From Minisyncoccota bacterium (GTDB lineage: Bacteria; Patescibacteriota; Minisyncoccia; Minisyncoccales; JAGOPM01), in contig JBAZJI010000001.1 of NCBI GenBank assembly GCA_041651395.1, positions 571,920 to 635,919 on the forward strand: a stretch of DNA of 64,000 nucleotides. Direction: 5' to 3'. Positions 20,842 to 36,259 of this stretch are shown piece by piece; the first letter of the stretch is position 1; the number at the start of each line of letters is the position of its first letter. The position numbers were made by a program, and so were the translations under genes. The notes beneath the pieces were generated by a model. The model was not told where the DNA came from and did no database searches. It saw only the letters and a program-made list of their open reading frames with translations.

Positions 20842-21930
20842 TCAAGCTGCCCATGCAGCCTTACGATAATCTTTTCCAAAAAGCCCTTCGCTCATTAAAT
20901 CCCAACGCTCGCATAACCGCCAAGCATCATCAAAACGTTTTTGGACCTTGTCTTCAACCATTCTGCTAATCAGCTCGCGCATTTTTTGCGGCACGGTCAA
21001 AGAGAAAGTTTTTTTTGCGCAATCGCCGCCCAAAAGATTTATGGCTATTTGCCCGATAGAGTAAATATCCATGGCTGGGCCGGGCCTTTCCTTGCGATAA
21101 ACCTCTGGCGCCGAGTAATCCTTACAAGCGCCCAAGATGCGTTCACCGTTTTTAGGATTAGCAACCGCAAAAAAGAAATCGCAGAAGTAAATTTTGCGCG
21201 AGGTTAAATCCAAAATCGTGTTGTTAGGCGCAATAGAGCCATGAATGACGTTTTTGGAATGCAAATTTCCCAAAGAAACCAACGCTTCCAAAATTATCCA
21301 GGCGACATGTTTGGGTTCAAGGCCGCTGAGCCTTTGTTGCCTAAGCGTGGCCAGATCTACCCCGTCAGAATAGCGCATAATCAAGCCAAGTTTTTTCCCG
21401 TAGCTTACCTTGTCAAAAATAAGCGGATATTGGGAATCTTCAAACTGCTTGAAAATCGCCATTTCTCTCTGGAGTAAATCATTATCAGCTTCACTTCTAG
21501 CAATTTTGGCTACTACCCGAAGATTCTGACCCCTCTTGCGATACATTTCGCCCAAATATAGATCCACAATTTTCCCTTCGAAAAGCTTTTCATAAAAACG
21601 ATAATCGCCGTTTTTGGTTGAAAAACTTATCGCGGGATTTTTATTGTAGGGTTGGTGAATTCCATAAATTCCGCGCTCAATTTTAGCCCGGGCTTCCTCA
21701 CGCAAAGCGTTAAGCATCCTGGTCGTTTCTGTGGCCATGGCTAAAATAGCCGGGCTCTCGCAGCGATAGCGATCAGGGTGACAAACGGCGACCAGACTCC
21801 GATAGCGCTGCCCTAAAACTTCGATGGAGGGATTTGAACCTCCCAAATCACCAAACAAATCCTCGGCCAGTGGTGCAGCTCTTAAGGCATCAAAAATTGC
21901 CTGAAGGCTGAGCTTCGCAAAATCAATCAC
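20842..21930 (-). CDS. J-domain protein fused to a protein-kinase-like (probably pseudokinase) domain
   Basis: J domain with YRSLVAVCHPDRY (HPD). The kinase fold shows VVAKIA (beta3 Lys), HGSIAPNN in place of HRDLKPxN, CDFFFA (DFG-like) and YSAPEV (APE). Confidence 0.7.
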   Translation of the reverse strand: MIDFAKLSLQAIFDALRAAPLAEDLFGDLGGSNPSIEVLGQRYRSLVAVCHPDRYRCESPAILAMATETTRMLNALREEARAKIERGIYGIHQPYNKNPAISFSTKNGDYRFYEKLFEGKIVDLYLGEMYRKRGQNLRVVAKIARSEADNDLLQREMAIFKQFEDSQYPLIFDKVSYGKKLGLIMRYSDGVDLATLRQQRLSGLEPKHVAWIILEALVSLGNLHSKNVIHGSIAPNNTILDLTSRKIYFCDFFFAVANPKNGERILGACKDYSAPEVYRKERPGPAMDIYSIGQIAINLLGGDCAKKTFSLTVPQKMRELISRMVEDKVQKRFDDAWRLCERWDLMSEGLFGKDYRKAAWAA

Positions 21931-24829: not shown

Positions 24830-26485
24830 TTACCAGTCGGCAGTTTCAGCCATAACTGCGCTAGAAGTCACTGTGCCGCTATAGCTACCAGCCACGGTGC
24901 CATCGGGAACTTTTAAGCCCCACATCACTACGCCGGCGGGCAAATAAGAGGTTGTTGTAGGCTTTTTAATATTCGTCTCTAACTCGACATCATTGGCGGT
25001 CAAAGCGGTTGCGTTTTGGTATTGAACGCCCGAGGTGGCATACTTTTGCGCTCCGACCACGATATTATTACTCCCACCATCATTCATGGCGGTACCTTTC
25101 AAATTAATATCCAAACCTGTGTTACCGGTAGATGTCACATAAGTTGTTTGCGGCAAGGCGGTCGTATCACTTATCTGCCCAACAGTCAAAGAACCGTAAG
25201 CGATAGCTGTGGTCATATCCATAGAAACAAAGCTCTGCAATTCGACTCCGGTACTGAGCTCTCCCGACCCCATTTGCGACCCATCCAAGGCATAAATGGT
25301 ATTTTTCCAAGTTTGCGCCGCTAAAGGAGTATTATTATCCGTTGGCGAGGCATGGAATTTATAATTGTATACGCAAGCATATTTCCTAGTCGTTCCAGAA
25401 GTACAACTATCAGAGGCCGAACATGAAACATTATAGATGCAAGTATTATTATTAGTAGCCGTGCAGCTGGCGGCCCCGACATCGGTAGTATAGGCAGAAG
25501 AAGTTACGGACGCCACGTCAGCACAACCATTATTATCCGTCACGGTTCCGGTCGCATTAATATTCACACTGCCGCCCGGCCCTTCGCCTCCAGTGGCAAC
25601 ATTAATTGTGGCTCCGCTATTTATTTCTACCGCCGAAACGGTCGGCGCCACATCATTGACGGTAAATTGTTCTTCAGTATTTTGCACTGCCCCGCCGGCC
25701 GCCATATTATGGCTATCAAAAACATAAACATAACTACTTGAAGCTCCATGCGCGGCCGGGGTCGGCACAGTAAAGCCACAACTAGGATTAGAAGCAGAAA
25801 GACTGGAAGTGCACCAAGTGTCGCTGTCACCGCCATCGCAAGCCGTACCGCTAACGCCTTGTGTTTTACAAACTACTAATTTAACCGTGTCAGAATGGGT
25901 CACATCGGGATCATTGGCAGTTGCCGTAATTGTTAAAGTGGCGCCGGGATCTTTCGGGCCGTCATTGGTCGCGTCAGTAAAATTTGGCGCATGATTGATG
26001 TGCACTGGAGAGCCATTATCGCCCGTGCCCTGAGTGGAGGCCGAACATTGGCTCGAAGCCACTTTATCGCAGGCAAACATATACCAAGTACTGGTCTCAG
26101 CCATATAAGCAGCTGCTGTAGTAGCACAAGTGGCTTGGGTATTATCGTTGGTAGGCACTGAATAACAGAATTCCCCACCCGTACAAGTCGGGGTGGCATT
26201 ATTATTAGCCGAAATCGCATTGGTTTTACAAACCGCCAAATAGTATTGGTCACCATTAGGGTCGTCGGCCGTACCAGTAAAAGTTATTGTCCCGCCGACA
26301 TTGACCGGATTAGTGGAAGTTATGCCGCCATCACTAACACTGGAGGGCGTAGCAGGAGCGCCGCCCGTCACGGTTACCGAGGTCGTAGCTGTGTCTGCCT
26401 TTACTCCCAGAATATCTTGAAGTAAGAAAATGCACAGTAATATTAGTATGGAAAAAAGCAAAAATTGTCCAATTTTTTGTGACAT
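24830..26485 (-). CDS. Secreted Cys/Thr/Ser-rich surface protein, paralogue A (551 aa)
   Basis: N-terminal signal/TM segment. Internal duplicated YYLAVCKT / VKLVVCKT modules. The C-terminal beta-rich domain ends VMWGLKVPDGTVAGSYSGTVTSSAVMAETADW. Confidence 0.75.
   Translation of the reverse strand: MSQKIGQFLLFSILILLCIFLLQDILGVKADTATTSVTVTGGAPATPSSVSDGGITSTNPVNVGGTITFTGTADDPNGDQYYLAVCKTNAISANNNATPTCTGGEFCYSVPTNDNTQATCATTAAAYMAETSTWYMFACDKVASSQCSASTQGTGDNGSPVHINHAPNFTDATNDGPKDPGATLTITATANDPDVTHSDTVKLVVCKTQGVSGTACDGGDSDTWCTSSLSASNPSCGFTVPTPAAHGASSSYVYVFDSHNMAAGGAVQNTEEQFTVNDVAPTVSAVEINSGATINVATGGEGPGGSVNINATGTVTDNNGCADVASVTSSAYTTDVGAASCTATNNNTCIYNVSCSASDSCTSGTTRKYACVYNYKFHASPTDNNTPLAAQTWKNTIYALDGSQMGSGELSTGVELQSFVSMDMTTAIAYGSLTVGQISDTTALPQTTYVTSTGNTGLDINLKGTAMNDGGSNNIVVGAQKYATSGVQYQNATALTANDVELETNIKKPTTTSYLPAGVVMWGLKVPDGTVAGSYSGTVTSSAVMAETADW
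25715..25894 (-). repeat. Near-identical 180-nt block shared with 27507-27686
   Basis: Encodes SDTVKLVVCKTQGVSGTACDGGDSDTWCTSSLSASNPSCGFTVPTPAAHGASSSYVYVFD. The nucleotide sequence is largely identical to the paralogue copy 1792 nt away. Confidence 0.85.
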
Positions 26486-26630
26486 ATGTGATCGACTTAT
26501 TATACACCAAACGTTTTACTTTTAAAAAATTAAGCTGTGGAAAAGTAGACAAAGCCACACCTATATTCAACTACCGTCTTACAAATCTTTTCAAAATTCT
26601 GACTAAAAATAACAGCTACTGAATCCAAAA

Positions 26631-28313
26631 TTACCAATCCGCTGCTTCGGCTTTGACGGCCTCGAAAGTATTAGTGCCACTATAGGAAGCAGCTGGAGAG
26701 TCAGTGGGAATTTGCAATCCCCAATAAATTGATTTGCTGGATAAAGAATTAGTAGTGGTAGTTTTTTTCAAATTAAGCTCCAACTCCGCGGGTGCGGCGC
26801 TCAAGGAAATGGCATTTTGATATTGGACGCTCGAGGTAGCATATTTCTGCTGCGCCACCCCAATTGTTCCACCCCCAGTCATGTCCGTACCCGAAAGCCG
26901 CACATCAAGGCCAGTATTACCCGTGGCCGAAATAACAGTTGTAGTTGATAAAGCGGTTGTATTGGCAATTTCCCCTATTCCTAAAACACCGTAAGGAATG
27001 GTAGAGCTGGCATCTAAGGCTGAATAACTTTGTAGGGCAACCCCGGAAACGCTTTCGTCCGTATCACTCAAAGCTTCATCGCTCGAAACGACAGTCAGCA
27101 TCCAGCTCTCCCCGGCGCGTGGCGTCGACTCATCGGTAGGATCGGCATGATATTTAAAATTGGCCGTGCAAGTATAAGTCTTATTAATTCCCGAGCTGCA
27201 AGAACCGCCCGTACAAGAAATATTATAGTAGCAATTATTATTATTTTGAGATGTGCAGCTCGCGGCGCCCAAGCCTGAAGGATACATTTTTCCAACTACG
27301 CTCACCACATCATCACAGCCATTGTTATCTGTCACGATTACCGTACTTGAAATATCTTTATTGCCGGTCGGGCCCTCCCCGCCAGTGGAAAGATTGATGG
27401 TAGCTCCACTGTTAACCGAAAGACTGGAATTGACCGGCGCAGCGTTACTGACTTCAAAAAGCACTTGGGTATTTTGCACCCCACCGCTGGCGGCCAAATC
27501 GTGATTATCAAAAACATAAACATAAGAACTGGTATTGCCGTGCGCAGCCGGAGCGGGCACATTAAAGCTACAACTAGGATTGGAAGCGCTTAAAGTAGAA
27601 GTGCACCAAGTGTCGCTATCGCCGCCATCGCAGGCTGCGCCACTCACACCTTGGGTTTTACAAACTACTAATTTGACAGTATCGGAATACGTTGAATCTG
27701 GATCAGAAGCGGTTGAAGAAAAAGTTATGGAAGTGCCCGGGGCTTTGGGGCCATCATTAGAGGCAACAGAAAATGACGGCACATGATTAACCTCAAAGGG
27801 ACTACCGCTATCGCCGCTGCCAGAGCTCACCGAAGAACACAGGCTATTAGCATTATGGTCACAAACAAAAGCATACCAGTTATTTGATTCACTCATGGCC
27901 GCCGCCGTGGTTGTAGCGCAAGTAGCTTGCGCCCCACTGACCGTAGAACCAGAGACACACCATTTGCCGCCACTGCAAGTTGGTGCGGCATTGCTGCTAG
28001 TGGCGATCACGCTGGTTTTGCAAACCGCCAAATAATAATTATCACCATCCGGGTCAGTGCCCGTGGCATAAAAATTCACATCGCTGCCCACATTGGTCGG
28101 AGTGGCAGCTGCCGAGGCCGGGCTTTCAGCTGGGCCGGCGGAGAAAGTCGGCGCATTATTGGGTGACGCCCAAGTAATCGTCACTTTAACATAATCGGTT
28201 TTAAGCGTATTGTGCTTAGTTATAGTATTTTTAGGTGTGCGCAAAAGCAAACCACTAACAATGGATAGAAATAGCAAGAATATATAAATTTTATTTCTAT
28301 CAATAGTAACCAT
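26631..28313 (-). CDS. Secreted Cys/Thr/Ser-rich surface protein, paralogue B (560 aa)
   Basis: Collinear with paralogue A over nearly its full length. Ends IYWGLQIPTDSPAASYSGTNTFEAVKAEAADW. Confidence 0.75.
   Translation of the reverse strand: MVTIDRNKIYIFLLFLSIVSGLLLRTPKNTITKHNTLKTDYVKVTITWASPNNAPTFSAGPAESPASAAATPTNVGSDVNFYATGTDPDGDNYYLAVCKTSVIATSSNAAPTCSGGKWCVSGSTVSGAQATCATTTAAAMSESNNWYAFVCDHNANSLCSSVSSGSGDSGSPFEVNHVPSFSVASNDGPKAPGTSITFSSTASDPDSTYSDTVKLVVCKTQGVSGAACDGGDSDTWCTSTLSASNPSCSFNVPAPAAHGNTSSYVYVFDNHDLAASGGVQNTQVLFEVSNAAPVNSSLSVNSGATINLSTGGEGPTGNKDISSTVIVTDNNGCDDVVSVVGKMYPSGLGAASCTSQNNNNCYYNISCTGGSCSSGINKTYTCTANFKYHADPTDESTPRAGESWMLTVVSSDEALSDTDESVSGVALQSYSALDASSTIPYGVLGIGEIANTTALSTTTVISATGNTGLDVRLSGTDMTGGGTIGVAQQKYATSSVQYQNAISLSAAPAELELNLKKTTTTNSLSSKSIYWGLQIPTDSPAASYSGTNTFEAVKAEAADW
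27507..27686 (-). repeat. Near-identical 180-nt block shared with 25715-25894
   Basis: Encodes SDTVKLVVCKTQGVSGAACDGGDSDTWCTSTLSASNPSCSFNVPAPAAHGNTSSYVYVFD. Confidence 0.85.
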
Positions 28314-28324
28314 TGGTCAATAAA

Positions 28325-29935
28325 TTAGTAGCAACAACATTCTGTTTGAGGCGGAGTCGAACAATTACCAGCACAAATGGTCGAATCGCCAAAATACGGA
28401 GGTCCACTGCATTGACCCGGGAACATACAAGTTCCATTGGCAAAAAAATTGGCTTGGCAACAAGTTTGGCAAATATTTGGCGAGACACAATTACCACTTT
28501 GGCAAACTTCACCAGAACTACACCCACACTGCTGCCCCTCACAAAAACTCGAATCGCAGCCACCACCGCCATTACAGGTGTAACAAGCTCCACCCGGACA
28601 ACCCACCCCTAAACCGACATATCCGCAAGTTCCCGCCGGGCTGCAAATATCGCAACCGTCGCCATCTCCGCAGCCCAAAGCTTGGGAGGCGGCTCCAGCG
28701 TCGGCGGTCATGGCTGTGCAAGCCGAGGTAGGAGAAGAAGCTGAACAGCCATAGCAAACCGGGCAACTGTGCTGCGCCCCGTCAACATAAAAACCGCAAG
28801 TATAAGGCGTTTGACCAAAATCAGCCGTAAAACAATTTCCGGTATAACAAGTGTTGGGTGTGGCCGCACATTGGTTCCAATAATCAGTGCCGACTTGCGG
28901 CGCGCAGCCCAAGGCCACCTCACCTCCGACCAAATCAGTTCCGGTAGACTGATAAGCACAAGTTAAAGTCGTCGGCGAAGAAGAACAGTTGTGTCCCATC
29001 TCATATTTTTGCACGACAAAGCGAATATCCTTATCCGCATCAAAAAAATTGGAAAGGTTGGTGGTGGTCGTATAGGTCATTGTGCAATCGGCACTATTAC
29101 AGCTATTATCCGTTTTGGAATCACCTAAACGAAAGGCATTGCCGGTCTTGTCATAAATATACAAACGCAAATCATTATAAGCGGCTTTTTCTTGGCCTTG
29201 GGTGGCGCGGCCTTCCCAAGAATAATCTATCTGGGTCACTGTGGCCGTGGCCTCATTTATCCGGAATTCAAAATCATGCACGATTTGCGGGAAAGAAATC
29301 ATATTCCAATTCGAGGTGGCGCTGGTTTCGGCATAAGTGTCATTAGAAGAATTGGCGGCCGTATATTGGGCAGTCGTAAACTGCGTGCCGGAAGCTACTG
29401 ACCAGACACTCCTATCCACACGCACGGGCACGGAAGTGGCATAGTCCTGGCCTTGATAGGCAAAACGCGTTACCGAAGAGCTCGCGGATAAATCATAAAC
29501 TGTTTGCGAGGAATTATGCGCCAAAGCCAACTGCTTGCCGAAATTAAATTCCAATTCGTGATTGCCTAATTTTTTAACCTTAAAAATTATCGCGCCTTGT
29601 CCGTCGCAAAACCAATTTTTGACAATAATTCTATCCTTTTTAACTTCAGCCGCGCGCTTATCCCCCTTGCAAGCAACGTAAGAAAATTCCATATCATTTA
29701 TTGTGGGAATATCAGCCAGCCTTATGGACAAGGTTGAAGTATTTTTAGTTTCAAAAAAAACTGTCCAATTACCTCCCTGCGCCGGGTGAAAGCTAGGGTT
29801 GAGAATTTTTATTCGGGAATTGGGCGTATAATCGGCCTTGATTAAAAATAAACCGAAAAAAACCAGCTCACATATAAAAATGCTAGCGGAAACAATTATT
29901 TTCCAATCTATTACTTTCCTATTTTGGCTCAACAT
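28325..29935 (-). CDS. Membrane-anchored surface protein with extremely Cys-rich C-terminal region
   Basis: N-terminal TM segment (IIVSASIFICELVFFGLFLI). The last 211 aa contain 33 Cys and end TECCCY. Confidence 0.7.
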   Translation of the reverse strand: MLSQNRKVIDWKIIVSASIFICELVFFGLFLIKADYTPNSRIKILNPSFHPAQGGNWTVFFETKNTSTLSIRLADIPTINDMEFSYVACKGDKRAAEVKKDRIIVKNWFCDGQGAIIFKVKKLGNHELEFNFGKQLALAHNSSQTVYDLSASSSVTRFAYQGQDYATSVPVRVDRSVWSVASGTQFTTAQYTAANSSNDTYAETSATSNWNMISFPQIVHDFEFRINEATATVTQIDYSWEGRATQGQEKAAYNDLRLYIYDKTGNAFRLGDSKTDNSCNSADCTMTYTTTTNLSNFFDADKDIRFVVQKYEMGHNCSSSPTTLTCAYQSTGTDLVGGEVALGCAPQVGTDYWNQCAATPNTCYTGNCFTADFGQTPYTCGFYVDGAQHSCPVCYGCSASSPTSACTAMTADAGAASQALGCGDGDGCDICSPAGTCGYVGLGVGCPGGACYTCNGGGGCDSSFCEGQQCGCSSGEVCQSGNCVSPNICQTCCQANFFANGTCMFPGQCSGPPYFGDSTICAGNCSTPPQTECCCY

Positions 29936-30033: not shown

Positions 30034-30804
30034 TTATGCGCCGAATATGCCGGCCTGAGCGGTCTGAGAAAAACTCTGAGTATTGTTGCTGGCCTTGGTG
30101 GCACTCTTGGAAAAGAGGTTGAAAGCTCTTCTGATGTCTCGGGCGGCGCTTAGGGAAGTGTAAATCCATTTGTCCGGTATCCCCACCCCACCAAAGCACT
30201 GGCGGAAAAAATTCTCCTCGCCAAAACCCATGGCGGCCACGATATGTTTCTCAGTGGCGATTAGATCATTGACCACACACTTGAGTTTAGCCTCATTAAA
30301 ATGGTGTGAATCGTTTTCGCAGCCATCAGTCATCACTAGAGTGATTGTTTTAACCGAGATGCCCGCGTCCTCGTATTCCTGCGTCTTGGCTGCAACGACT
30401 GCCATGGCTTCACCAATCCCGTCGTAAAGTGGCGTGGAGCCATCCGGATGGTAATTGCTGCTATCCATACAAGGCGCTTGGTCAACCAAGCAATATGGGA
30501 ACATGGAACCGGAGTTGAGAAAGCGGACGTGCACCAGAATACTGGACTTGCGCTTGGTATTTTTGAGCTCCTCGATGAAGTCTTTGTAGCCAAGCATCAG
30601 TTGCTTAGCCGAGTCCCCATCCATGGAGCCGGAATCGTCGAGAACCAGAGTTATCAAAGTAATGTCCTCTGTCCCGCCGATTTCCTCAATGCCTAAGCCC
30701 TTTGCTTCTTCAAAAGCCTGGGCCAAATCGTTGGTATTAAGAATGCCCACACTCTGCTTGCTGAAATTCGCGCCTTCAATAAGCTGAGAAAATTGGTCTG
30801 TCAT
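30034..30804 (-). CDS. vWA domain protein, TerY-like
   Basis: MIDAS LVLDDSGSMDG and a later VMTDGCEND. SD aagggga lies before the ATG, 12 nt after the upstream stop. Confidence 0.8.
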   Translation of the reverse strand: MTDQFSQLIEGANFSKQSVGILNTNDLAQAFEEAKGLGIEEIGGTEDITLITLVLDDSGSMDGDSAKQLMLGYKDFIEELKNTKRKSSILVHVRFLNSGSMFPYCLVDQAPCMDSSNYHPDGSTPLYDGIGEAMAVVAAKTQEYEDAGISVKTITLVMTDGCENDSHHFNEAKLKCVVNDLIATEKHIVAAMGFGEENFFRQCFGGVGIPDKWIYTSLSAARDIRRAFNLFSKSATKASNNTQSFSQTAQAGIFGA

Positions 30805-30816
30805 GTTGTCCCCTTT

Positions 30817-31863
30817 CTAGCGGTTGAAAATTCCGCTGACGCCCGGCCAAGAAGCAATCGGGTCAGTTGATTTGACCACGTGCATTCCGGCCTTGCCAAA
30901 CTCGGCAAAGGCCTGGTCTGCCTGGGTAGTGAAGTTCGCCACTCCCGGGATGATTACCGGCGAAGTGCAGTCTTCCAACAGGTAAACCTTTTCCACCAAA
31001 GTCTTGTCCTGAACCATGATCTCATTTAAGAGATCGCTAATGGTCCAAGCCAAGCAATGGCTCTTGGCCTGCCCAGTGATAATAACCATGTCAGCCTCCA
31101 TGAGCTCCTTGATGAGCTTGGTATTCTTCTGGGCTCCGCCGATAGCTGCTCCTGACTTCAGAGTGGCCACTTCTGGCCTGAGAACTGAGTAGTGCTCAGT
31201 GAGCTGGTTGGAGCCTTTGAGCTCTGGCTTATTGGGTGAGCCGCGCAGGAACGAATGGTACAAAAGCGCTTCTTCGAATGTGCCCACAAGTGTATGGCCG
31301 GGGGTACCAACAAGGCAATGGTGCGGCCAGATCATGAGACTGTACTTTCCGGCGCGCTCCAGCTCTTCGCAGTAGTGGATGACATAGCCGGCATTGTCGG
31401 CGGGATTTCCGCCCAAAAGCGGATTGGGCTGCCATTTGCCAGTCTTGTAGTCAGCCGAAGAAATGGAAGTGCCGGAAGCCGGATAATTGCCGTAGGAATC
31501 AACATGGAATTCTGGGAAGAAAATCTGCCAAGGCATATGGGTGTCCATGGTCGGAATTATCTGGGTAATGGTAGCGATGTTGCGGTAGATGAACTCCGCC
31601 AGACGCTGTGAATCCTGCTCAGCTCCAGCCACGTAAAGCGAACCGAATGGCGGGGCAAAGCAGAAATCTTTTTGGTTGTCGATGACAAGCAGGAAAACCT
31701 TTTTGGCATCCGCATTGTAGCCGGAAACCTTTTGGGACTTTCTGGCCTTTGAGGCTTCTTCAAGAAGCATGGCTGGGTCTGGCCGGTAGGCCGGATCCAG
31801 GGCATTGGCCGAGTTGTAAAAACCCGGAAGGGCGCATACGTTGTTTAAGTCTTGCTTTTTCAT
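30817..31863 (-). CDS. Isochorismatase/nicotinamidase-family cysteine hydrolase (long form, 348 aa)
   Basis: LLVIDNQKDF (catalytic Asp block), MDTHMPWQI (DxH metal site), MIWPHHCLVGTPGH (WPxHC), KGSN (Lys) and GQAKSHCLAWT (nucleophile Cys). SD aaggagg. Confidence 0.75.
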   Translation of the reverse strand: MKKQDLNNVCALPGFYNSANALDPAYRPDPAMLLEEASKARKSQKVSGYNADAKKVFLLVIDNQKDFCFAPPFGSLYVAGAEQDSQRLAEFIYRNIATITQIIPTMDTHMPWQIFFPEFHVDSYGNYPASGTSISSADYKTGKWQPNPLLGGNPADNAGYVIHYCEELERAGKYSLMIWPHHCLVGTPGHTLVGTFEEALLYHSFLRGSPNKPELKGSNQLTEHYSVLRPEVATLKSGAAIGGAQKNTKLIKELMEADMVIITGQAKSHCLAWTISDLLNEIMVQDKTLVEKVYLLEDCTSPVIIPGVANFTTQADQAFAEFGKAGMHVVKSTDPIASWPGVSGIFNR

Positions 31864-31874
31864 TTTTTCCTCCT

Positions 31875-33746
31875 TCAGGAAATTTTGATTTGCCGTATGG
31901 CATTCTTATTGAGGGCTATTAGCCCGTCTTTGCATAGATATAACTGCGTCTGCGAATCGACAAAGTTTTCAGTTCCGGCAAAATCCCTGGCTTTGGCGAT
32001 TTGGCCGTTAGTATAATCAACGCGCACAATTCCCTGGTCAGTGGCGCACAGAAGCGCTTCGTTTCCGTTTTGCGTTGTAAGAGCGCACTTGCCCCTGATA
32101 GCCCCTAACCAATTATTGCTGCCATCAACGGCAACCTCATGGCCCAGTACTTGGCCGAAACGCGAGACGAGCCAGCAATGGTTTTCAATTTTTCCCGCTT
32201 GGGATTTTTTGCAGAAAAACCAGCAGTGGTCGTGGGAGAAAATGGCGGTAGTGTCTAAGATTTGGCCTGAGCCAAAACTGATTTTGATCGCATCATTTAT
32301 CCCGGGCTTCTCGGCGTCAAAAACAAAGACGCTGCTATAGCCTTGGGCGCGGTAAAAGCCTAACCCAAACTGTTCGCCAACCCAGAAAAGCGTTCTGCTC
32401 TCCAGGATCGAGCCAATAGCTATAGGGACTTCTTCATCTATGTCGCCGCTGCGCCATAATTTTCCGCCCTCGCACCAGTAAAGATGTTTAGAGTTGGCGT
32501 CAAAAATGGGCAGGCTTCCCAGGCAATCGACTTTACTGACTTTGTTGCCTTTGGCGCTAGCAATAACCAATTTGTCCTGCTTGCCGAAAATTGTTTTGTC
32601 TCCCCAAATCCTTAATCGCATATAGGGATCCAAAACTCCTACCAAGACAATTTGATCGTTCTCGCGGTAGTAGCTGTGGATTTCATGGAAAAGCCATTTA
32701 AGCTCGCCATTTTGCACCGTTGAGCAGATAATGACTCCATTGGTGGAGAAAATCTGCGTGGCCGTAACATTGCCTTGAATCTGAATACTTTGCTTTGGCA
32801 CAGCCTGCGTGCAATTGGGACAAACGCTTCTGGCATGTTCGAACCCGCATTGGCTACAAGTGGTCCACTGGGCATTTTTTAGCAGATTTTCCGGGAAAAC
32901 TTGACGCTTATCCTTCAAAAAAACCTGTTCAAACCGTGCCAACAGATCATCAGAGAGTGATTTAAGGGGTCTGGCTGTCTTGGGATACAAGACGTTCTTG
33001 TCAAAGACTGTAATCCTTTTGAGCCTCCGTTCCAAAGAATTGGCTTGGCGCCCTTTGGGCGGTTTGTGTACACCCGCATAAGGCCCAGCCAAAAGATAGG
33101 ACTGCATCAACAAGGCGTCAAAGGAATACCAGTCAGAAGCTTCGCTTTCAGGCTTGGCCAAGCAGAATTCTTGGGCATTTGCGTCAAGCAAAAGCGGGTC
33201 AATGAGGCGCTCAGTGAAGAGCCGGCACATATAACCACCATATTGCCAAGAATCGGCATCAATCAGGAAAGCTTGGGAGCCAACCACCATAACATTCAAA
33301 TCATTAAAATCTCCAATGACGATATTTTGGCGGTGGACCAGTTCTACCGAAGAGCGCAGATCCAAGAAAATATCCTTGACCAAAGTATTAGATACCCCGC
33401 GGTCGCGGAAAATCTTGTCGCTGAATTTGAGTAGCAGCTCGCCATTGCTGACAAGGGCCATCGCATATCCAATGATTTCGCCTGCTTCATTGTAGACAAA
33501 GTCGAGGGGCGCGATTACGCGGTTAGACAAGCCCTTGGGAAAAAGCGGAAGCTTTTTCTGGATTTCCAAAAGTTTGATTTTGGCGGCCTGCTGCTGCTCC
33601 GGGAATCCGGAGAAATCTGGGTGTCCTGGGGGCTTAAATATTTTGACCGCCAATTTGCCTTGTTGATAGATATCAGCCTCTCCGCCTTCGCCTAAATGCT
33701 TTAATTTGCGCAGATTCAATTCCACGCCATTAAGCATGGCTTTCAT
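31875..33746 (-). CDS. Ser/Thr protein kinase with Zn-ribbon and repeat-rich C-terminal domain
   Basis: LGEGGEADIY (Gly loop), LAVKIF (Lys), HRQNIVIGDFNDLNVMV (catalytic loop), FLIDADSW and CSQCGFEHARSVCPNC (Zn ribbon). About 300 aa of beta-rich C-terminus. ATGA overlap with the PP2C gene. Confidence 0.8.
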   Translation of the reverse strand: MKAMLNGVELNLRKLKHLGEGGEADIYQQGKLAVKIFKPPGHPDFSGFPEQQQAAKIKLLEIQKKLPLFPKGLSNRVIAPLDFVYNEAGEIIGYAMALVSNGELLLKFSDKIFRDRGVSNTLVKDIFLDLRSSVELVHRQNIVIGDFNDLNVMVVGSQAFLIDADSWQYGGYMCRLFTERLIDPLLLDANAQEFCLAKPESEASDWYSFDALLMQSYLLAGPYAGVHKPPKGRQANSLERRLKRITVFDKNVLYPKTARPLKSLSDDLLARFEQVFLKDKRQVFPENLLKNAQWTTCSQCGFEHARSVCPNCTQAVPKQSIQIQGNVTATQIFSTNGVIICSTVQNGELKWLFHEIHSYYRENDQIVLVGVLDPYMRLRIWGDKTIFGKQDKLVIASAKGNKVSKVDCLGSLPIFDANSKHLYWCEGGKLWRSGDIDEEVPIAIGSILESRTLFWVGEQFGLGFYRAQGYSSVFVFDAEKPGINDAIKISFGSGQILDTTAIFSHDHCWFFCKKSQAGKIENHCWLVSRFGQVLGHEVAVDGSNNWLGAIRGKCALTTQNGNEALLCATDQGIVRVDYTNGQIAKARDFAGTENFVDSQTQLYLCKDGLIALNKNAIRQIKIS

Positions 33747-34561
33747 TTGCCCTCCTTTCTGCGCAGTGCAATGAAGGTCGTGTCGTCGCTAAGCAAACCT
33801 TGCTCGATGATGAGCTTTTGGTTAACCCAGTCTCCGCTTACATGCTCGCGATTGGCAACTTTGAGCCGATTGTTTGGCAGATATCCTTTGTAATATCTGT
33901 CATCAGCGCAAAACTGTTGGAGCGAGCCCATTGTTTCGTCTTTGCCCGGGATTTTACACTCGCAGTTTTCCAGAAATCCCTGGCAGCCGTCGCTACCCAC
34001 TAACAAACTTTGGAGCTTTTTGGTAGGGATAATTGTGTGGATCTTAAATCTAAGGCTGGCGGCAGCAAAAGGCACTTCTTCAAACAGTTCGTATCCAAGA
34101 TAAGGCGGTGCATTATCCTCAAAGGGGCCGATTTGATTAATGCACCCATTAAGAATATAAACACCATCCCCGATGGAAAAAATCATGCAAAGCGCCGGCG
34201 TTATGGCAAAACCCATGATGGAGAAAAGTAAAGCTTCCTCAATCATATTTTGGCCGATAATTCCCGCGCTAAGCATTGCTCTTAAACTAGAAATAATTTC
34301 CTGCCTTGCTTCCTCAAAACATCGATTCAGCCTGGATGATTTTTTTAGCGAATCCAACAACTTTTGGGTTACCAGCTGGGCGCCGATTTGGGCGCCGACT
34401 TCGCTCTGCGGCTGAGAGCCGCAACCATCACAGACAATCCCGACAATCGCATTTTCCTCGCTTTTTAAGCACAAGGCGTCTTGGTTATTTTTCCAAAGCC
34501 GCCTATGCTCTTTGCCGGCAATACTGCCGCAACAATGCTCAAATAAATCTTTTATGGGCAT
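33743..34561 (-). CDS. PP2C-family Ser/Thr phosphatase
   Basis: NNQDALCL, IVCDGCGSQPQSEVGAQ and LVGSDGCQGF match the PP2C metal-binding Asp/Gly blocks. Confidence 0.75.
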   Translation of the reverse strand: MPIKDLFEHCCGSIAGKEHRRLWKNNQDALCLKSEENAIVGIVCDGCGSQPQSEVGAQIGAQLVTQKLLDSLKKSSRLNRCFEEARQEIISSLRAMLSAGIIGQNMIEEALLFSIMGFAITPALCMIFSIGDGVYILNGCINQIGPFEDNAPPYLGYELFEEVPFAAASLRFKIHTIIPTKKLQSLLVGSDGCQGFLENCECKIPGKDETMGSLQQFCADDRYYKGYLPNNRLKVANREHVSGDWVNQKLIIEQGLLSDDTTFIALRRKEGK

Positions 34562-34842
34562 TTTATCTCCTTCCTCTGCCTGTTCAATGTTCTTTACTGC
34601 CTCGTGGTAAACAATTAACTATTTTGCAGTTTCCACTGCCTATTTGTTGTTTCAAGGAATGTTTTGGCGCTTATTCGTTTGAGTAATTCTGTTAATCGGT
34701 AATTTTAGATATTCGTCGCATATTCGGGGAAGTTTCCCTCCCCTTTCATTGTTAGAGAACTTGGTGTGAAATATACACTATATTGAAGGATATTTTTTAC
34801 CGGATATCTCCGGTTACTTTTCTCCTTTAGTGTATTACTTAC

Positions 34843-34871
34843 AATATATCAGAGCAGGGAAGGCCTGTCAA
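34843..34871 (-). promoter_or_regulatory. Consensus sigma70 promoter of the PP2C-kinase-hydrolase-vWA operon
   Basis: Minus strand: TTGACA (34871-34866), 17-nt spacer, TATATT (34848-34843). This implies a leader of about 275 nt before ATG 34561. Confidence 0.65.
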
Positions 34872-34921
34872 GCCCCTCCCCTGAATAATTGCTTTTTGGC
34901 CGGTTTAGCCCTTATTTATAA

Positions 34922-34944
34922 AAGAAAAACCCCGCTAAGCGGGG
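34922..34944 (-). terminator. Rho-independent terminator after the NrtR-like gene
   Basis: Minus strand reads ccccgc-tta-gcgggg followed by tttttctttt. Confidence 0.8.
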
Positions 34945-34963
34945 AGTTTTGCACCCGAATTCG

Positions 34964-35638
34964 TCAAAAAAATTTCTTCAGAGTTTCTTTCTGGGGATGC
35001 TTGAAGGCGTATAATTTGGCCGGGCGAGCCCTATCCCCTTTGAGGATTTTGTGGGTATCTTCCAATAAATTCAGCTGGGCAAATTTTTTCCGGAAATTAC
35101 GTTTATCGATTTTTTTCTCCAAAATCGTCTCATATATTTTTTGCAGCTGCGTCAGCGTAAAAACCACGGGCAGAAGCGAGTAAACTACATTGGTATATTC
35201 CAGCTTCATCTTCAACCGATTAAGCGCGTATTTAATTATTTGCCCATGGTCAAAAGCCATGCGGGGCAATTTTTTTACCGACCAAAATTCCGGAGATTGG
35301 GCATCGGCCAGATCGGCGAAAATTATTTTTTCCTTGGGCATGAGGGCAAAATAGGCAACCGAAAATACTGGCCCGCGCGGATCGCGGTCCAAGCCCCCGA
35401 AGGTGTAAAGCTGTTCAAAGTATATTTTTTTAACCCCGGCCTTATCGTGAATTAGGCGCTCTACGGCCTTTTCCATAGTTTCCCCCTTAAGCAAGAACCC
35501 GCCTGGCAACGCATAAAAACCACAAAAAGGGTTGTGGGGCCTCTTTATCAAAAGCACCTTAAGCTCCCCGTCGACAATCGTAAAAACAACCACGTCAACC
35601 GTTAAAGAAGGGTTCAGGTATTGGTCTTTTTTGTCCAT
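34964..35638 (-). CDS. Nudix-domain + C-terminal winged-helix protein, NrtR-like regulator
   Basis: Nudix fold with a degenerate box GFLLKGETMEKAVERLIHDKAGV (REUXEE replaced by RLIHDK). A C-terminal region of about 80 aa fits the NrtR wHTH architecture. The promoter is leaderless-type. Confidence 0.65.
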   Translation of the reverse strand: MDKKDQYLNPSLTVDVVVFTIVDGELKVLLIKRPHNPFCGFYALPGGFLLKGETMEKAVERLIHDKAGVKKIYFEQLYTFGGLDRDPRGPVFSVAYFALMPKEKIIFADLADAQSPEFWSVKKLPRMAFDHGQIIKYALNRLKMKLEYTNVVYSLLPVVFTLTQLQKIYETILEKKIDKRNFRKKFAQLNLLEDTHKILKGDRARPAKLYAFKHPQKETLKKFF

Positions 35639-35701
35639 ATTACACTATTTATAACACTCTAATCCCCCAAAGGCAAAAGCCGCTTTGGGCGGCACAAAAA
35701 A

Positions 35702-36259
35702 TCATTTCACAATCGCCAAATCGGTTTGCCAACTAGGCGCCAAACAACTGACAGAGGCCCTCTCCCCAGCTATCTTTATATCCAAGCTATCCTCGCAACT
35801 TTGATATTTGGCTAAAGCCTCTTTTGCCAATTCGAGACTATCCTTAATCTTCCCCGCTTCCCAAGCCTTAAGCCCCTGGGGCCTTTCGATAATATCCAAA
35901 TTTTCGCTGCCCAGCCGGTCAACCCAAAGATATATTATTTGTTTGGCGATTTTATCGTAAGAGCCGATTTTATAATTAAGAGCGCGGCCATCAGAGGCAA
36001 CCTGCCAAGCTTCATAAGAATAAAACAGTAAATTCTTGCGGCCCGAACGCTCCTCGGAACGTTTCAAAGCCTCTTTAAGGCTAAGGGCCAAGCCCGGGGG
36101 ATTCTCTGTCGGAGGGCGCGGCGCATCTTTTTTGGCCGTAGCCAGCTCGATTTCACGGGCTCGTTGGACCGCATTTTTCGCGCCTTGATCTTGGATAAAA
36201 TAGGCGGCCATCACCGCCAAAACTACCACAATAAAAAATACTCCTAATACTTTTTTCAT
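35702..36259 (-). CDS. Membrane-anchored hypothetical protein
   Basis: N-terminal TM segment MKKVLGVFFIVVVLAVMAAYF. No family recognised. Confidence 0.6.
   Translation of the reverse strand: MKKVLGVFFIVVVLAVMAAYFIQDQGAKNAVQRAREIELATAKKDAPRPPTENPPGLALSLKEALKRSEERSGRKNLLFYSYEAWQVASDGRALNYKIGSYDKIAKQIIYLWVDRLGSENLDIIERPQGLKAWEAGKIKDSLELAKEALAKYQSCEDSLDIKIAGERASVSCLAPSWQTDLAIVK

Follow-up and report, generated by a model that had tools for sequence, protein, structure and literature searches.

An NrtR-family regulator with a degenerate Nudix box and its predicted operators beside a phosphatase-kinase-nicotinamidase-vWA operon of a Minisyncoccota bacterium

In a stretch of 64,000 nucleotides from the genome of a Minisyncoccota bacterium (contig JBAZJI010000001.1, positions 571,920 to 635,919; this whole stretch is called the window below), a gene for a Nudix-like protein of 224 amino acids lies upstream of four genes coding for a PP2C-type phosphatase, a Ser/Thr-type kinase, a nicotinamidase-like protein and a von Willebrand factor A (vWA) protein, all in the same direction. 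The question raised by this locus is whether the Nudix-like protein is an enzyme or a regulator and, if a regulator, whether it controls the four neighbouring genes and in response to which signal. A preliminary description, made from the sequence, had proposed an NrtR-like regulator with a non-catalytic Nudix domain that might place the operon under the control of ADP-ribose or a related metabolite of nicotinamide adenine dinucleotide (NAD), and each part of this interpretation that could be checked was supported by our analysis. We consider it highly probable that the gene, here called nrtR, codes for a non-catalytic NrtR-family repressor that binds two operators, O1 and O2, at the promoter of the four-gene operon (the quartet) and a third, O3, at its own start, shuts the quartet promoter, and is relieved by an NAD metabolite, most likely ADP-ribose.

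Family and fold of the regulator

The nrtR gene occupies positions 34964..35638 of the minus strand in the list of open reading frames (ORFs), with an ATG start, and its product joins a Nudix-like sensor to a winged-helix DNA-binding domain. Its assignment to the NrtR family rests on Pfam, on sequence matches in the PDB and on an AlphaFold model. The Nudix-fold effector domain comprises residues 14-136 (35231..35599, minus strand; Pfam NUDIX, PF00293, E 5.5e-11, 43 bits against a cutoff of 21.1), and the NrtR-type winged helix-turn-helix comprises residues 153-212 (35003..35182, minus strand; Pfam NrtR_WHD, PF21906, 83.9 bits against a cutoff of 27); Pfam AraR_C covers residues 148-218. The best sequence match in the PDB is AraR of Bacteroides thetaiotaomicron (BtAraR, 5bs6, 1e-41), and the matches to it and to NrtR of Shewanella oneidensis (SoNrtR, 3gz5, 5e-36) both extend across the two domains. 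The AlphaFold2 model, built on an alignment of 33 relatives, has a mean predicted local distance difference test score (pLDDT) of 85.8. In Foldseek, this model reaches a template modelling (TM) score of 0.85 with BtAraR 5bs6 and, over the full length and at 40% identity, of 0.80 with the SoNrtR-DNA complex 3gz6, and its Nudix domain matches 3gz8, the SoNrtR Nudix domain with ADP-ribose. The comparison with NrtR structures that had been proposed for this protein thus bears out the proposal, and Pfam, the PDB matches and AlphaFold2 with Foldseek agree that the C-terminal extension of about 80 amino acids is an NrtR winged helix. The protein is confirmed as a full-length member of the NrtR family, with a Nudix fold and an NrtR winged helix.

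The degenerate Nudix box, GFLLKGETMEKAVERLIHDKAGV, at residues 47-69 (35432..35500, minus strand), reads exactly as it was parsed in the preliminary description. G47, E53, R61 and G68 of the signature GX5EX7REUXEEXGU are retained, and REUXEE is translated as RLIHDK, with L62, D65 and K66 in place of the three glutamates; the box is not an intact catalytic one, and the Nudix domain lacks the catalytic glutamates as had been claimed. Since the consensus of the 33 relatives reads RILKDK, with K66 invariant, loss of these glutamates is a property of the whole clade, not of this sequence alone. A search at E 1e-10 yields over 7,800 homologues, most of them without a name or called 'NUDIX hydrolase' or '8-oxo-dGTP diphosphatase', and the nearest named relatives come from Patescibacteria (Paceibacterota, Yanofskybacteria, Harrisonbacteria). 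As a protein, the regulator is an ordinary, if mis-annotated, NrtR-family repressor, and neither an AraR nor a catalytic Nudix enzyme.

Predicted operators and the genes that they precede

Comparison of the regions that flank nrtR in the window, in L002 and L003 (90-92% identical) and in three distant loci (L009, L015, L042) gave a shared palindrome, TAGTGT-N7-ACACTA, which together with its flanks forms a 21-bp wTAGTGT-N7-ACACTAw. In the 64 kb of the window this pattern is matched three times at ≤2 mismatches, against 0.70 matches expected, and all three sites flank nrtR. O1, TATTGTAAGTAATACACTA on the minus strand (34828..34846, 11/12 positions), covers the final four bases of the -10 box of the quartet promoter as well as the start site predicted near 34836, and O2, TAGTGTATATTTCACACCA on the minus strand (34762..34780, 11/12), is centred 66 bp downstream of O1. 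The cores of both are invariant in L002 and L003, in an alignment where much of the remaining leader has diverged. The weaker O3, TAGTGTAATATGGACAAAA on the minus strand (35629..35647, 10/12), lies across the start codon of nrtR, immediately behind a TTGCCT-17-TATAAA element; autoregulation of nrtR through this site is probable, and predicted operators are also found upstream of nrtR homologues in 20 other loci. A different register for O3, GAGTGT-N7-AGTGTA, was discarded, as only 8/12 of its positions match. The two regions once proposed for binding tests, 34562-34925 and 35639-35701, both turned out to hold predicted operators.

The same pattern was surveyed in 986 kb around 80 homologues in species-representative genomes, where 67 sites were found at ≥11/12, 27 of them perfect; first-order Markov shuffles gave about 1 and 0, respectively. 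Furthermore, the two flanking positions, which had not been used in the selection, are A or T in 97% of cases among 100 collected sites. Operators of the NrtR family are 21-bp palindromes with a GT-N7-AC core (PMC2330246), a pattern that the core of our predicted operator fits. In the AraR-DNA structure, residues K179, R180, N181, K184 and R205 'define the GTGT DNA sequence motif' (PMC4666351). The recognition helix of the regulator, D178-K-R-N-F-R-K184 (35087-35107, minus strand), is identical to that of BtAraR in the PDB alignment, and R205 is also present; these residues are invariant or nearly so in the clade, and the predicted GTGT half-site is the one expected from the five residues that the two proteins share.

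The quartet promoter that O1 overlaps is the best promoter-like site of the region, a sigma-70-type TTGACA-17 nt-TATATT with an upstream TG and 11/12 matches (34843..34871, minus strand), about 280 nt before the PP2C start codon; in L002 and L003 its -35 box is invariant and its -10 box is retained. The preliminary description had placed the regulator directly upstream of the operon. It is upstream and in the same direction, but the 402-bp spacer between nrtR and the PP2C gene holds a terminator and this separate promoter, both of which had escaped notice, so that nrtR is a separate unit. The intrinsic terminator of nrtR, CCCCGC-TTA-GCGGGG followed by TTTTTCTTTT (34920..34944, stem 34930-34944, minus strand), stands directly after the gene and is kept in L002 and L003 with altered stem and loop bases. 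Another terminator, that of the gene upstream of nrtR, lies at 35679-35693; nrtR is flanked by terminators and is therefore its own transcription unit. Its promoter-like element, TTGCCT-17-TATAAA preceded by a TG (35639-35680), stops 12 nt short of the ATG, no Shine-Dalgarno sequence is seen, and only about 30 nt separate this promoter from the end of the preceding gene's terminator; the nrtR transcript seems to be leaderless. The quartet has a 5' leader of about 270 nt (34562..34827, minus strand), the first 150 nt of which are conserved in L002 and L003. When positions 34400-35800 were scanned against Rfam at a permissive threshold for a riboswitch in this leader, only a chance match to a long non-coding RNA was obtained. 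The leader contains a hairpin ACCGGA-N4-TCCGGT (34799-34814) with a compensatory change in L003, a second hairpin GGGGAGGGAA...CCCC at 34726-34743, a 15-bp near-palindrome ATATGCGACGAATAT at 34709-34723 and, in its distal part, two to three copies of A-AGGCAG at about 34571-34651; these elements could be the binding site of a second regulator or belong to a structured RNA leader.

Candidate targets were collected by taking whichever gene comes first downstream of each ≥11/12 site, and their products were clustered. Besides nrtR itself (20 loci), the targets are pncB, for nicotinate phosphoribosyltransferase (8 loci), nadE, for glutamine-dependent NAD synthetase (6 loci), the PP2C-led operon (6 loci in four independent lineages), the short canonical pncA (5 loci), nadK, for NAD kinase (3 loci), and nadA, for quinolinate synthase (2 loci). 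The loci span bacteria of the candidate phyla radiation (CPR), DPANN archaea, Chloroflexota, Planctomycetota and Gammaproteobacteria. The recurrence of NAD genes beside the operator leads us to read the clade of the regulator as genuine NAD-regulon NrtR, with an unusually well conserved operator. In five DPANN loci (L014, L017, L023, L031 and L039, from Woesearchaeota and Nanobdellati), perfect 12/12 operators accompany nrtR homologues of about 50% identity and precede nadA, pncB and a gene for a DAO-type oxidase, which points to an exchange of the regulator together with its sites between CPR bacteria and DPANN archaea.

The preliminary description had also raised the co-occurrence of the regulator with the PP2C, kinase and vWA genes (the triad) in other genomes, and its co-occurrence with all four quartet genes is found in distant lineages, in co-directional, divergent and detached arrangements. 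In tblastn searches with the window proteins, nrtR is divergent from PP2C-kinase-nicotinamidase-vWA in two Saccharibacteria (L009, L015), with an operator in the common spacer, and runs in the same direction as the quartet in L042, with two operators. A Candidatus Nomurabacteria locus (L013) carries two perfect operators, 27 bp from each other, ahead of a quartet in the order nicotinamidase-vWA-PP2C-kinase, and in the same locus nadE-nrtR and pncB have an operator each. Approached from the nicotinamidase side, three further loci place the quartet inside NAD-salvage islands (pncB, nadD, prs, nadE, pnuC). L087 reads nrtR-pncB-PP2C-kinase-nicotinamidase-vWA; L089 has pnuC-AAA_28 and then a divergent nrtR-PP2C-kinase-nicotinamidase-vWA, with a CTP_transf_like gene (read as nadD), pncB, a Nudix gene, prs and nadE among the genes further downstream; and in L091 nrtR-PP2C-kinase-nicotinamidase-vWA is followed by an unassigned gene for a 216-aa protein and then by pncB-prs-nadE. 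Several other loci have the long nicotinamidase immediately after nrtR and no triad.

When metagenome contigs were searched with the nicotinamidase alignment, 80 further loci were obtained, with GC contents from 0.32 to 0.74, from which 18 independent quartets in the canonical order and with usable upstream DNA were taken. A site at ≥11/12 lies ≤300 bp upstream of the PP2C start in 11 of them, and in five of these 11 there is no nrtR within 8 kb. Outside those upstream regions, only three sites at ≥11/12 occur in the other 284 kb of the quartet loci, and the density of sites is about 180-fold higher in the 320-bp upstream segments than in the rest. The operator and the operon are found together at GC contents from 0.40 to 0.69, also where nrtR is not adjacent. 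Operators at 11 of 18 quartets, five of them with no nrtR nearby, indicate that the predicted link between regulator and operon is conserved well beyond synteny. Four loci (L111, L115, L159 and L013) have the order nicotinamidase-vWA-PP2C-kinase instead of PP2C-kinase-nicotinamidase-vWA; the nicotinamidase-vWA and PP2C-kinase pairs stay together in both orders, which hints at two functional sub-pairs. A low-GC quartet, L088, has neither nrtR nor operator and lies among small ORFs, a gene for an SLT lytic transglycosylase and a NUMOD3 homing-endonuclease-like gene, a context that suggests a mobile or phage-like element.

Within the window, the first gene of the quartet codes for the PP2C-type phosphatase (33743..34561, minus strand; Pfam PP2C_2, E 3e-16). 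The second codes for the Ser/Thr-type kinase (31875..33746, minus strand), with a weak NCBIfam LanL match (E 4e-6), a CxxC-N8-CxxC zinc ribbon at C297-C312 that reads C297SQC...C309PNC, and, at its C terminus, about 310 aa with no known function; its orthologue in L013 matches Pkinase, which is clearer support than the kinase of the window gives. The fourth codes for the vWA protein (30034..30804, minus strand; Pfam VWA, E 0.0023, below the gathering score), with an intact metal ion-dependent adhesion site (MIDAS) motif, DxSxS (D56-D-S-G-S). The third, a long-form nicotinamidase-like amidohydrolase of 348 aa (30817..31863, minus strand), was recognized from its AlphaFold2 model (pLDDT 93.2), from Foldseek and from its invariant residues. 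The Pfam Isochorismatase model misses this protein, which does not reach E 0.01, and its alignment to M. tuberculosis PncA is confined to the diagnostic motifs. Its top Foldseek matches are the nicotinamidase structures 2wta from A. baumannii, 3v8e (yeast Pnc1), 3r2j from Leishmania and 1ilw from P. horikoshii, with a target TM score of about 0.77. On what appears to be an isochorismatase fold, the catalytic Asp-Lys-Cys triad (D62, K216, C270) and the Asp-His-His metal site (D107, H109, H182) do not vary among 33 homologues. Five homologues of about 580 aa (P0135, P0166, P0172, P0179 and P0181) were considered as fusions to the vWA protein, and this was rejected: the extra 235 or so amino acids are N-terminal and unrelated to vWA, a comparison made for P0135 and P0172 only, and have no Pfam match in P0135, P0166, P0172 and P0181.

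The vWA gene is followed at once by a tandem of three ORFs, of 536, 560 and 551 aa (24830-29935, minus strand), two of which are paralogues with 56% identity. They had no Pfam match in our scan, the first being recorded as PF27237 AF_1625_C in the source index, and are not conserved beside the quartet in other loci. PADLOC defence models gave no significant match to the regulator, the four operon genes or three downstream ORFs. Another kinase gene, some 9 kb further downstream than the quartet and beside a uridine-kinase-like gene, codes for a conventional Pkinase-domain protein of 362 aa (20842-21930, minus strand) that is unrelated to the quartet kinase.

Probable inducing signal and competing explanations

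Family membership does not fix the ligand, because AraR, the closest solved relative, senses a sugar. The pocket was compared residue by residue, the SoNrtR residues that contact ADP-ribose being those listed in the AraR paper (PMC4666351). SoNrtR R41, which contacts phosphate, corresponds to R34 in BtAraR and R33 in the regulator; K76, which contacts the alpha-phosphate, to L67 and K66; and R98, which contacts ribose and phosphate, to G89 and R88. R33, K66 and R88 are invariant in the 33 relatives, and K66 sits at the position of the last glutamate of the Nudix box. The adenine-stacking F15 corresponds to N8 in BtAraR and to Y7 in the regulator, at a position that is usually aromatic, a placement that assumes an ungapped extension beyond the aligned region. 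The pocket looks like that of a nucleoside-diphosphate binder and not of a sugar binder, and the conserved phosphate contacts, together with the NAD genes of the predicted regulon, favour ADP-ribose as the ligand, with NAD as the main alternative. ADP-ribose releases SoNrtR and Synechocystis NrtR from DNA (PMC2330246), and MsNrtR likewise, which has a perturbed box and negligible hydrolase activity (PMC6800001).

The same repressor architecture could also serve a signal of the opposite sense, in which NAD+ or another pyridine nucleotide is the co-repressor and the operon is switched on when NAD falls. NdnR of C. glutamicum, a member of the NrtR family, responds to NAD in this way, as co-repressor (PMC4666351), a regulon of NAD salvage and synthesis fits end-product feedback by NAD equally well, and the conserved R33, K66 and R88 would contact the diphosphate of NAD too; sequence does not discriminate between the two ligands. 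The members closest in pocket residues (SoNrtR, Synechocystis NrtR and MsNrtR) are, however, released by ADP-ribose (PMC2330246; PMC6800001), and we regard the NAD signal as unlikely.

It might also be that the regulator controls only itself or genes elsewhere, and that its position beside the PP2C operon is chance synteny. The terminator between nrtR and the operon would agree with this, as would the quartets that lack an operator, several of which also lack nrtR within 8 kb. Two 11/12 sites on the operon promoter, the joint occurrence of operator and operon at GC contents from 0.40 to 0.69 even where nrtR is not adjacent, and the roughly 180-fold site density make such a coincidence very improbable. 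We give still a little less credit to a sugar-responsive, AraR-like regulator whose adjacency to the operon is unrelated to NAD. BtAraR is the best PDB match by sequence and by fold, its sugar contacts R34, R86 and H131 are conserved as R33, R85 and H131, and the recognition helices are identical; but the AraR cleft is filled by F36, L67 and G89/Y5, where the regulator has H35, K66 and R88, which we liken to the residues of an ADP-ribose binder, no pentose-utilization genes are seen close to nrtR, either in the window or in the relatives sampled, and the operator-linked genes are pncB, nadE, pncA, nadK and nadA, not sugar genes. Least credible of all is an active Nudix hydrolase, an ADP-ribose pyrophosphatase with no regulatory role, as database names would have it and as some NrtR proteins with an intact box, which do hydrolyse ADP-ribose (PMC2330246), might suggest, since all three glutamates of REUXEE are replaced throughout the clade, Slr1690 (PMC2330246) and MsNrtR with similarly perturbed boxes have negligible activity, and a complete winged helix, conserved base-reading residues and matching operators are present.

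For the repressor relieved by ADP-ribose, the following sequence of events may be proposed. A dimer of apo-NrtR would bind the 21-bp palindromes O1 and O2 through its winged helices, and their occupancy would block RNA polymerase at the strong sigma-70-type promoter of the quartet, while the repressor would damp its own transcript by way of O3. Consumption of NAD by glycohydrolytic enzymes would cause free ADP-ribose to accumulate, bind the degenerate Nudix pocket, reorient the winged helices and lower the affinity for DNA. The operon would then be transcribed, and the nicotinamidase would turn the released nicotinamide into nicotinate for salvage. That the regulator represses and does not activate is inferred from the placement of the operator over the -10 box and the start site; the ligand, the physiological trigger and the other steps are proposed by analogy with the characterized NrtR members.

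Several observations weigh against this proposal. The case is computational throughout, and 64 kb of the genome were analysed; in these 64 kb the nicotinamidase-like gene is the sole NAD gene, as tblastn with the pncB, nadE, nadD, prs, pnuC, nadK and short pncA of relatives found no other. The best solved match is an arabinose sensor, AraR, and not an ADP-ribose sensor. Against the NCBIfam equivalog model NF050029, 'ADPR responsive transcriptional repressor NtrR', the regulator scores 154.9 bits where the cutoff is 400, and by this measure would be a relative of the seed proteins within the family and not an equivalog. In the pocket, SoNrtR N43, which contacts the alpha-phosphate, corresponds to F36 in BtAraR and to H35 in the regulator, at a variable position, and Y10, which contacts adenine and corresponds to Y5 in BtAraR, has no clear counterpart. 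O3 matches at only 10/12 positions and lies half in coding sequence, where its conservation is not independent evidence. Finally, 7 of the 18 quartets have no recognizable operator, which suggests that control of the quartet by NrtR is common and not obligatory.

Relation to known systems

The new element appears to be the content of the regulon, in which a triad of the TerY-P type is fixed to a long nicotinamidase under an NrtR operator in many phyla. In the literature that we searched, no paper joins NrtR to PP2C, to vWA or to the CPR, or the triad to a nicotinamidase. It may tentatively be suggested that the triad and the long nicotinamidase form one module, a regular member of the NrtR regulon from the CPR to high-GC bacteria, in which a phospho-switch of the TerY-P type would be dedicated to nicotinamide deamidation and transcribed only during NAD cleavage. 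If so, Ser/Thr signalling and NAD salvage would be linked in a way that has not been described before, and the module could rebuild NAD or remove inhibitory nicotinamide after NADase-type attack or stress. A defence-related reading of the operon is possible, because a survey of 2022 predicts that Nudix-HTH regulators sense ADP-ribose in other conflict systems, sometimes with vWA proteins (PMC9503650). Furthermore, thousands of homologues in the CPR and in uncultured lineages that are now called 'NUDIX hydrolase' or '8-oxo-dGTP diphosphatase' would be better read as NAD-regulon repressors sharing one operator, which, being conserved across bacteria and DPANN archaea, provides a simple handle for reconstructing NAD metabolism in unculturable organisms. 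Through the predicted operator, the triad, which has until now been viewed as a switch for stress or defence, is tied to NAD turnover and to a divergent nicotinamidase. Its function thereby becomes directly testable, since there are candidates for both the substrate enzyme and the inducing metabolite, and the DNA sites are defined.

Among the characterized systems, SoNrtR (3gz5, 3gz6, 3gz8), an ADP-ribose-responsive repressor of NAD salvage, has the same two-domain build, with about 40% identity over 209 positions and TM scores of 0.80-0.82. Both proteins have a degenerate Nudix box, R41, K76 and R98 of SoNrtR are found as R33, K66 and R88, and each has an NAD salvage regulon and a palindromic operator built around GT-N7-AC, the operator and regulon of our protein being predicted ones. 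They differ in the recognition helix, QGKSFRR in SoNrtR and DKRNFRK here, and for this reason in the sequence of the operator; in the pocket, where Y10 is not recognizably conserved and N43 is H35; and in the target, which is prs-nadV for SoNrtR and here a nicotinamidase within a kinase, phosphatase and vWA operon. BtAraR (5bs6, 5dd4, 5deq), an NrtR member that responds to L-arabinose, is the best match (1e-41, TM 0.85). It has the same DNA-reading residues (K179, R180, N181, K184, R205), a GTGT half-site like the one predicted here, and tandem operators, which are the rule for AraR (PMC4666351) and are also seen at the quartet promoter. Its nucleotide cleft is filled by F36, L67 and Y5/G89, whereas the regulator retains K66 and R88, and it controls arabinose genes, whereas the clade of the regulator is linked to NAD genes, which sets the latter outside the AraR subfamily.

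The TerY-P triad was reportedly described by Anantharaman et al. in 2012. According to two papers, it is composed of a vWA protein, a PP2C phosphatase and a Ser/Thr kinase fused to a zinc ribbon (PMC11090510; PMC4978471). The operon has this composition: it codes for a PP2C, for a kinase that carries a CxxC-N8-CxxC zinc ribbon and for a vWA protein whose MIDAS is intact. Unlike TerY-P, which stands beside tellurite-resistance, restriction and DNA-processing genes, the quartet was found neither with genes of these kinds nor with a PADLOC match; it has the long nicotinamidase as a fixed fourth member and occurs in NAD-salvage neighbourhoods (L087, L089, L091) under a predicted NrtR operator. The closest precedent on the side of the target genes is provided by the classical nrtR-pncA-pncB regulons of Lactobacillus, Clostridium, Pseudomonas and Roseiflexus (PMC2330246, Table 1), where NrtR adjoins and controls the nicotinamidase gene of salvage pathway I, and relatives of the window locus add pncB, nadE, nadD, prs and pnuC in a similar manner. 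What distinguishes the locus studied here from these regulons is its nicotinamidase, a divergent form of 348 aa that is missed by the Pfam Isochorismatase model and that would be co-transcribed with a phospho-signalling triad.

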